Source of the DNA: Deltaproteobacteria bacterium
GTDB lineage: Bacteria > Myxococcota > Kuafuiibacteriia > Kuafuiibacteriales > Kuafuiibacteriaceae
Direction: 5' to 3'
DNA: 64,000 bases
NCBI GenBank assembly: GCA_040218735.1
Contig: JAVJQW010000021.1
Coordinates: forward strand, 91,629-155,628
Each line of letters starts with the position of its first letter. The stretch's first letter is position 1. Below the pieces are notes generated by a model. It was not told the origin of the DNA. It did no database searches and was given only the letters and a program-made list of their open reading frames with translations. This document shows positions 29,855 through 30,502 of this stretch, piece by piece. Position numbers and translations under genes: made by a program.

Positions 29855-30502
29855 GTGGCGAAGGCGACGAAACACCGCGACGCACTCATCCAGTACGCGC
29901 TCTCCTTCCCGGGGGCGTACGCGGATCACCCCTGGGGGGAGGTCGTCGCGAAGATCGGGAAGAAGGTGTTCGTGTTCTTCGGGCACCCGCCGGAGGACGC
30001 GTTCGGCATGAGCGTGAAGCTCCCGCAGTCCGGCGGAAAGGTGCTGATGGCCCCCTTCGCCGAGCCGACGGGGTATGGTCTGGGCAAGTCCGGCTGGGTC
30101 TCGGTGCGTTTCACGGCCTCCGATGTGATCCCGCCGACCGAGACGTTGTGCGCGTGGATCGAGGAGAGCTTTCGGGCGGTCGCGAACAAGACGCAGGTGA
30201 AGGCGCTCGACGCCGCGCCTCCGAAGGCGCCGAAGGGGCGGGCGGCCGCAAAGAAATCCGCGGCGAAGAAGCCGACCGCAAAGAAATCCGCGGCGAAGAA
30301 GCCGACCGCAAAGAAATCCGCGGCGAAGAAGACGACCGCAAAGAAATCCGCGGCGAAGAAGACGACCGCAAAGAAATCCGCGGCGAAGAAGACGACCGCA
30401 AAGAAATCGGCGGCGAAGAAGCCGACCGCAAAGAAATCCGCGGCGAAGAAGACGACCGCAAAGAAATCCGCCCCCCGGCGGCGGGGGGCCCTGCGCAAGT
30501 GA
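29855..30502 (+). CDS. MmcQ/YjbR-family putative DNA-binding protein with a C-terminal lysine-rich tandem-repeat (histone H1-like) tail
   Basis: A GTG start at 29855 is proposed, because the upstream part of the track ORF overlaps the preceding gene and is Arg-rich. The core ALIQYALSFPGAYADHPWGEVVAKIGKKVFVFF resembles YjbR/MmcQ. The tail is 7.4 copies of KKSAAKK(P/T)TA encoded by a 30-bp tandem repeat. Its stop overlaps the next gene's GTG (GTGA). Confidence 0.75.
   Translation: MAKATKHRDALIQYALSFPGAYADHPWGEVVAKIGKKVFVFFGHPPEDAFGMSVKLPQSGGKVLMAPFAEPTGYGLGKSGWVSVRFTASDVIPPTETLCAWIEESFRAVANKTQVKALDAAPPKAPKGRAAAKKSAAKKPTAKKSAAKKPTAKKSAAKKTTAKKSAAKKTTAKKSAAKKTTAKKSAAKKPTAKKSAAKKTTAKKSAPRRRGALRK
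30251..30473 (+). repeat. Coding 30-bp tandem repeat, 7 full copies plus a partial one (aagaaatccgcggcgaagaag[c/a]cgaccgca)
   Basis: Directly visible perfect or near-perfect 30-nt periodicity from 30251. Only a ccg/acg (Pro/Thr) polymorphism varies between copies. It lies inside the MmcQ-like CDS and in frame (10 aa per unit). Confidence 0.9.

Follow-up and report, generated by a model that had tools for sequence, protein, structure and literature searches.

The gene at positions 29855 to 30502 of the window (64,000 nucleotides of contig JAVJQW010000021.1 in the Deltaproteobacteria bacterium assembly GCA_040218735.1) encodes a protein in which an N-terminal YjbR/MmcQ domain is followed by a lysine-rich tail that carries a 30-bp tandem array. 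We propose, with moderate confidence, that this is a nucleic acid-binding protein whose disordered, polycationic tail adds sequence-independent affinity, most probably for DNA, and that the length of the tail evolves by slippage or unequal exchange. The parts of the gene are listed below; ORF stands for open reading frame, Ca. for Candidatus, and pLDDT for the predicted local distance difference test score.

29855..30502, plus strand: YjbR-plus-lysine-tail gene, GTG start, TGA stop (ORF and translation, 215 aa).
29855..30214, plus strand: YjbR/MmcQ double-wing domain, aa 1–120 (Pfam PF04237, AlphaFold2, and Foldseek).
30215..30247, plus strand: Ala/Pro/Lys linker AAPPKAPKGRA between domain and array (translation; coil with lower pLDDT in AlphaFold2).
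30248..30457, plus strand: seven full 30-bp units; the product of each, AKKSAAKK(P/T)T, consists of two xKKxx pentamers (translation).
30458..30472, plus strand: partial eighth unit, first 15 nt, encoding AKKSA (translation).
30473..30499, plus strand: Arg-rich C-terminal end PRRRGALRK, identical in Ca. Photomyxococcus marinus (L001) and at two further related loci, L035 and L037, described below.

The N-terminal part matched the Pfam YjbR profile PF04237 over aa 16–107 (E = 2.1e-11, 44.7 bits against a cut-off of 30.1, profile positions 1–87 of 88), and a query with aa 1–125 retrieved approximately 2,500 homologues, many of which are named MmcQ/YjbR family DNA-binding protein. In the AlphaFold2 model, which was built from 48 sequences, the block pLDDT values of aa 1–120 were mostly 83 to 97, with one block at 69, and the domain had the topology H-E4-H-E2-H-H. 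A search of the domain sequence against the Protein Data Bank (PDB) gave nothing significant, and a fold search was required; Foldseek placed E. coli YjbR (2fki), DR2400 (2a1v), and PSPTO_3016 (3h9x) at ranks 1 to 3 (E values of 7e-5 to 3e-4) and the C-terminal DNA-binding domain of T4 MotA (5jlt/1kaf) at ranks 6 and 7. The fold and surface of YjbR have been likened to those of the MotA C-terminal domain (PMC7641849). The MmcQ/YjbR identity that the original prediction gave to this part of the protein is therefore borne out by Pfam, the homologues, and the fold. Compared with Ca. P. marinus, the ratio of nonsynonymous to synonymous substitution rates (dN/dS) of the domain was 0.088 at a dS of 0.12, which indicates that the domain is under purifying selection.

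The last 90 residues comprise 32 Lys, 5 Arg, 26 Ala, 11 Thr, 8 Ser, and 5 Pro with no Asp or Glu, giving a net charge of +37. This region was modeled as coil with block pLDDT values of 52 to 63, and the tail is predicted to be intrinsically disordered. Residues 108–205 matched Pfam HC2 (PF07382, histone H1-like Hc2) with an E value of 2.4e-13 and 51.1 bits against a cut-off of 40, whereas three composition-preserving shuffles of the tail gave no HC2 match. The likeness to HC2 therefore lies in the pattern of pentamers with KK every five residues and not in composition alone, and a purely compositional match was rejected. The NCBIfam equivalogs were missed by a wide distance (NF038052, 31.5 against a cut-off of 135; NF038053, 40.6 against 80), and the motif KPAA is absent from the tail sequence. 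The tail is of the H1/Hc2 type in the way it works but lies outside the Hc2/BpH1 protein families, and the H1-like character that had been ascribed to it holds, as the profile was matched by the real tail and by none of the shuffles.

The question of whether YjbR proteins elsewhere carry such tails, which the original prediction had raised, was answered by an exhaustive search of 1.84 billion representatives. It gave 1,216 matches at E ≤ 0.001, and the best 150 were classified (50% identity level), a basic extension being defined as at least 15 aa with K+R of at least 22% and D+E of at most 8%. Such extensions were found in 77 of the 150 representatives (51%): at the C terminus in 60, at the N terminus in 15, and at both ends in two. 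No extension was present in 33, and the remaining 40 had an extension of another kind. In the set of the 120 best homologues, 54 of 119 carried a basic extension of 15 aa or more at the C terminus, and approximately 17 had an N-terminal extension of Lys/Ala/Thr/Pro repeats. The tail sequences within the best 150 of the 1,216 matches were mutually unrelated and differed in length, so the tail is not a conserved domain of fixed length. Instead, it is an appendage that recurs, evolves fast, and is selected for positive charge. A second array in the subfamily illustrates this recurrence: at 5778–5951 of a contig from a Myxococcota metagenome-assembled genome (JBCCWC010000076, L005), a YjbR protein of 61% identity has an N-terminal repeat of KKTAAK, encoded by 9.5 copies of an 18-bp unit (93% matches). 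This array is independent, and with it the same solution has arisen at the opposite end of the protein.

A further architecture was found within the class of other extensions, where approximately 22 of the 150 representatives (~15%) have an extra C-terminal domain of ~130 aa. A profile of this domain matched the receivers of KdpE, BasR, and PhoP with E values of 6e-7 to 1e-5, and Pfam gave a single weak, sub-threshold Response_reg match on it. These proteins are built as YjbR, basic linker, and a divergent receiver with the motifs LLVGDDPLRLERA, VVVDLGR, and PPGDP; in alignment A2 they include P0166, P0173, P0175, P0178, P0181, P0182, P0190, P0191, P0195, P0200, P0201, P0210, P0215, P0218, P0219, P0224, P0230, and others. 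From their sequences, they look like an undescribed type of response regulator with an N-terminal YjbR as the output domain.

Other observations were made during these searches. A domain scan of genome contigs yielded 13 loci and no near-identical genome, and at the closest locus (82% identity) the contig ends before the tail is reached. At 5944–7065 of an Acidobacteriota genome (bin529, CP070706, L016), a YjbR homologue has a C-terminal extension of ~230 aa after a basic linker, and this record has an in-frame stop within the YjbR domain, for which a pseudogene, a sequencing error, or recoding is possible. When the repeat DNA GCAAAGAAATCSGCSGCGAAGAAG was searched against metagenome contigs, 18 single matches were obtained, all in unrelated Lys/Ala tails, with no second array and no paralogous tail. 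An L9-like ORF was among the bearers of these tails. In contigs from soil and peat metagenomes (L019, L021, L022, L029, L032, L033, and others), tails of the AKKSAAKK type were seen on a response regulator, a SWIB-like protein, the ribosomal proteins L21 and L22, and further proteins; they are a general accessory in some lineages.

Tandem Repeats Finder placed the array at 30246–30471 (period 30, 7.5 copies, 97% matches, 0 indels, score 424), and it was the only array in the window with a score of at least 80. The unit DNA is GCA AAG AAA TCC GCG GCG AAG AAG NCG ACC, which encodes AKKSAAKK[P/T]T; at codon 9, three units have CCG and four have ACG, in the order P P T T T P T. The claim of near-identical 30-bp units is correct, whereas the accompanying claim that only the Pro/Thr codon varies is not: unit 6 has a synonymous TCC to TCG change, the sole other difference among the seven units. 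An independent 108x Illumina metagenome-assembled genome (MAG), A1-SPW-13 (GCA_040216985.1, L037), matches the window at 100% identity across a 10.6-kb stretch in which the array lies, so the array is not an assembly artefact, and the 11.5-Mb Joint Genome Institute (JGI) contig 3300058926 Ga0573880_001 equals the window over the 6.6 kb compared. The JGI and NCBI gene calls chose the same start for the gene at identical or orthologous loci, and its third-position GC content (GC3) in its own frame is 0.875. Another frame through the array, reading RKEIRGEEAD and arising from a mechanical 5' extension of the downstream lipoprotein ORF from 30148, was rejected because the signal peptide of a lipoprotein must be N-terminal and because GC3 (0.6 within the array, against 0.8 in the YjbR frame) and the homologues favor the lysine frame.

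Copy number was compared among relatives. A1-SPW-13, D1-CHI-08, F4-SAH-06, and C1-SOL-14 are MAGs with mutual digital DNA–DNA hybridization (dDDH) values of 99.4 to 99.8%; they come from a non-phototrophic Ca. Kuafubacteriaceae myxobacterium in non-axenic Coleofasciculus cultures, and the sister species is Ca. P. marinus E2-BRE-13 at a dDDH of ~57% (PMC13043013). The window belongs to this myxobacterium. They were assembled with MEGAHIT from Illumina paired-end 150-bp (PE150) reads, with coverages of 108x for A1-SPW-13, 21.6x for E2-BRE-13, and 8.1x for C1-SOL-14 (PMC13043013). The arrays are as follows.

Window and A1-SPW-13 (L037; JGI 11.5-Mb contig and 108x MAG): 7.5 units of type PT/TT, flanks 100% identical.
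Two further NCBI MAG records (presumably D1-CHI-08 and F4-SAH-06): 7.5 units of type PT/TT, identical 215-aa protein in a protein-level comparison.
C1-SOL-14 (L035; 8.1x, 1,435 contigs): 2.5 units, P and T, exactly 150 bp shorter, flanks 99.9% identical.
Ca. P. marinus E2-BRE-13 (L001, array at 6386–6480; 21.6x): 3.2 units, all GCG ACC ("AT"), flanks 93% identical.
GCA_030429805.1, JAUIGK (L036): 2.5 units, both CCG GCC ("PA"), flanks 89–91% identical.

In each of the three lineages, the unit variant is private to that lineage and common to all of its units. These private unit types, together with the single synonymous difference among seven units, imply gain, loss, or conversion of units after the lineages split; dS between the window and Ca. 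P. marinus is 0.12 to 0.28. The state of 7.5 units is probably, judging from these alignments, a recent expansion, and the recent origin that had been predicted for the array is upheld by this turnover in steps of 10 aa, with two to three units of private type (AT and PA) in the sisters against 7.5 (PT/TT) here. At the DNA level, the consensus unit has no fixed synonymous change across the three lineages, whose flanks are 7–11% diverged, and the rare codons GCA and AAA are kept; the fixed differences are all at the first position of codons 9 and 10 (CCG/ACG/GCG and ACC/GCC), numbers too small to tell constraint on the DNA from chance.

Taken as a whole, the protein would be a small cytoplasmic one made of a 120-residue YjbR/MmcQ double wing and a 90-residue disordered polycation. 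The tail would hold the protein to a polyanion, in all probability DNA, by electrostatic attraction that does not depend on sequence, so that the YjbR domain binds more tightly and stays bound longer; H1-like tails have this effect in other bacterial DNA-binding proteins. Replication slippage or unequal exchange between units would shift the length of the array in steps of 10 aa and +4 charge, and in the window species the array would recently have grown to 7.5 units from the two to three of the sister lineages. We infer DNA as the ligand from the analogy of YjbR with the MotA C-terminal domain, the recurrent basic tails, the receiver fusions, and the precedents of AlgP, Hc2, TopA, and Ku; any effect of tail length is inferred as well. 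Several points weigh against this proposal. For the whole YjbR family, DNA binding is a prediction from structure only (PMC7641849, PMC3424535), and the neighboring genes (sat/cysC, TroA-like, PHP lipoprotein, and sulfatases) hint at no DNA-related role. The copy numbers of the relatives come from short-read MAGs, which are prone to collapse of perfect arrays, and full weight can be put only on the difference in unit type. In addition, similar lysine repeats in PhaF bind RNA (PMC12818456), and AlgP associates with polyphosphate (polyP) granules (PMC9239181).

The last two points lead to the alternative that fares best, although we regard it as rather less probable than DNA binding: the tail could bind another polyanion, either RNA or ribosomes as for PhaF or polyP granules as for AlgP, with a role in translation control or granule organization. 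The lysine-repeat C-terminal domain of PhaF directly binds specific mRNAs, and species differ strongly in the number of its repeats (PMC12818456), while the corresponding domain of AlgP is required for the spacing of polyP granules (PMC9239181). The AKKSAAKK-type tails that L21 and L22 of the ribosome carry in metagenomic contigs point the same way, and DNA as the ligand of the YjbR domain is itself only predicted. By contrast, the tail lacks KPAA, the nearest functional analogue of the YjbR fold is the DNA-binding MotA C-terminal domain, and the receiver fusions better suit a role like that of a transcription factor; none of these three points is decisive.

If DNA is the ligand, a broader and more speculative proposal can be made, which we consider unlikely in this full form. 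The tailed YjbR subfamily might be an unrecognized, widespread class of bacterial nucleoid proteins akin to linker histones, present in Myxococcota, Acidobacteriota, Planctomycetota, and further lineages that are mostly uncultured. In these proteins, the double wing would give a preference for sites or structures and the tail would set the affinity for chromatin. The receiver-fused relatives would then represent control by phosphorylation, and tail length (+37 here) would serve as an evolvable dial of nucleoid compaction.

The 3' end of the gene abuts the following one.

30499..33000, plus strand: CehA/McbA-type PHP metallohydrolase lipoprotein gene (DUF3604), 833 aa, GTG start overlapping the YjbR stop.

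The lipoprotein ORF begins MSRLAFVVGALAAALLIAC, a signal peptide with the lipobox LIAC, and it matched NCBIfam NF038032 (CehA_McbA_metalo, 87.5 bits against a cut-off of 80) as well as Pfam PHP and DUF3604. With the stop codon of the YjbR-tail gene at 30500–30502, the predicted GTGA overlap at 30499–30502 was confirmed, and the same 4-bp overlap occurs at L001, L035, L036, and L037; in a relative of 73% identity (L002) it is lost, and a 99-bp gap is found instead. The conserved stop/start overlap makes the two genes a candidate translationally coupled pair. RNA structure at the junction was no more stable than that of shuffles (z = 0.11), and no Rfam family was found in the window. The suggestion that copy number modulates downstream coupling found no support: changes in frame leave the last 45 nt and GTGA intact, the junction has no special structure, and the overlap is lost in L002. 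All of the array alleles compared are in frame and share the same C-terminal end.

These data also bear on a reading of the array as a hypermutable contingency locus, in which slipped-strand changes in copy number within populations would tune the protein and, through the stop/start overlap, the expression of the lipoprotein. The near-perfect 30-bp units are as such a locus would have them, the repeat regions of Hc2 and AlgP vary between isolates (PMC2848022, PMC9239181), and C1-SOL-14, at 99.9% identity, is exactly five units shorter. All k-mers of the C1-SOL-14 allele, for k up to 57, however, also occur in the 7.5-unit allele, so the short allele, from an 8.1x MEGAHIT assembly in 1,435 contigs, is compatible with de Bruijn collapse and untrustworthy; it was rejected as proof of polymorphism. 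The ongoing slipped-strand variation that the original prediction envisaged is not supported. The window and the 108x A1-SPW-13 MAG agree at the DNA level, down to the unit order P P T T T P T, while the same 215-aa protein is encoded in two more MAG records, which presumably come from other cultures. Nor does the recovery of identical arrays from separate cultures hint at rapid instability. On/off switching is impossible because the unit of 30 bp is a multiple of three, and the 45 nt before the junction would be untouched by copy changes. We consider a contingency locus very doubtful. Equally improbable is a selectively neutral, functionless low-complexity expansion, left behind by slippage in a high-GC genome tolerant of Lys/Ala tails: tails differ wholly in sequence and length among relatives (33 of the 150 representatives have none), the spacer codons 9 and 10 change freely between lineages, and many unrelated proteins bear Lys/Ala tails, but a basic extension with almost no acidic residues is retained in half of the subfamily, where different repeats have produced it at one end or the other, the KK positions and reading frame are strictly kept, and so consistently cationic an outcome is not expected of neutral expansion.

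The gene lies in a string of same-strand genes separated by gaps of at most 31 bp or joined by 4-bp overlaps: an unknown 704-aa ORF, a sat/cysC fusion, a TroA-like gene, the YjbR-tail gene, the DUF3604/PHP lipoprotein gene, and a sulfatase gene. Its immediate upstream neighbor is as follows.

28942..29832, plus strand: TroA/BtuF-like binding-protein gene, 22 bp 5' of the YjbR start.

No plus-strand terminator-like site was found between the genes of the string, and a promoter scan gave no sigma-70-like sites; minus-strand terminator-like matches are the complement of the repeat. The pairing of YjbR with DUF3604 occurs in the window and at L001, L002, and L035 to L037 but is absent from 12 more distant loci. 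Because it is confined to the close lineage, we attribute it to synteny within that lineage, and a functional link between YjbR and the DUF3604/PHP protein was rejected. The 704-aa ORF at the head of the string (25075–27189, plus strand) has no Pfam match at E ≤ 0.01 and has the same length at L001, L036, and L037. The sulfatase gene is followed, after a gap of ~110 bp, by the gene of an 840-aa protein (35376–37898, plus strand), two genes 3' of YjbR. With matches to Pfam Vault_3 (35.2 bits against a cut-off of 28.8) and to MVP_shoulder (31.6 against 25), this bacterial protein is homologous to the major vault protein of eukaryotes, and it is kept at L001, L035, L036, and L037. The sat/cysC fusion (ATP sulfurylase and adenosine 5'-phosphosulfate (APS) kinase) stands amid two sulfatases, a Phosphodiest-type enzyme of the alkaline-phosphatase superfamily, and the PHP metallohydrolase lipoprotein (27220–28920, 32997–35267, 40713–42857 on the minus strand, and 44725–46071 on the minus strand), and this sulfur-related set may be an island for the utilization of sulfated substrates or for sulfation.

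H1/Hc2-like lysine tails on bacterial nucleic acid-binding proteins, and changes of their repeat number between strains or species, are already well known, so neither the tail nor the array is surprising in itself. YjbR/MmcQ, in turn, is a large family without an experimentally established function. What is new is the presence of basic tails in about half of the subfamily and of a receiver domain in ~15%, which lends context-based support to the structure-based guess of nucleic acid binding; a full-text literature search found no description of the combination of YjbR with a lysine tail or of the prevalence of tails in the subfamily. The Kuafubacteriaceae orthologues also provide a natural series of approximately 2, 3, and 7.5 units on a domain that is 97–100% identical, suited to tests of tail length.

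Compared with known systems, the tail shares lysine-rich pentamers with Chlamydia Hc2 (HctB) and Bordetella/Burkholderia BpH1 (PF07382). Size differences of hctB arise by gain or loss of whole repeat elements (PMC2848022), and the array in the window changes size in the same way. By contrast, Hc2 and BpH1 consist of repeats only, without a globular domain, whereas the window protein has the YjbR domain, and its repeat element has 10 aa and not 36 as in Hc2; the likeness is probably convergent. Pseudomonas AlgP and PhaF resemble the window protein in having a folded N-terminal domain followed by a long, disordered repeat tail rich in Lys, Ala, and Pro, and in these proteins, too, species differ in the number of repeats and polyanions are bound through the tail (PMC12818456, PMC9239181). 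The motif AKKSAAKK(P/T)T differs from theirs in the absence of KPAA, and the N-terminal domains are unrelated. Lysine-repeat tails on actinobacterial TopA, mycobacterial Ku (PAKKA), and Streptomyces DdbA and HupS reportedly raise DNA affinity or processivity, and these proteins appear to share with the window protein the design of a specific or enzymatic nucleic acid-binding domain joined to a low-complexity polycationic tail, the partner domain here being YjbR. Myxobacterial CarD reportedly has an H1-like tail as well (Garcia-Heras et al. 2009, as cited in another paper). Within its own family, the window protein shares Pfam family and fold with E. coli YjbR (2fki), PSPTO_3016 (3h9x/2kfp), and DR2400 (2a1v), with target-normalized template modeling (TM) scores of 0.60 to 0.63 and sequence identities of 19–23%. 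These solved structures are bare domains of 117–138 aa without a basic tail, whereas the subfamily of the window protein, which comes mostly from uncultured Myxococcota, Acidobacteriota, Planctomycetota, and others, is often tailed.

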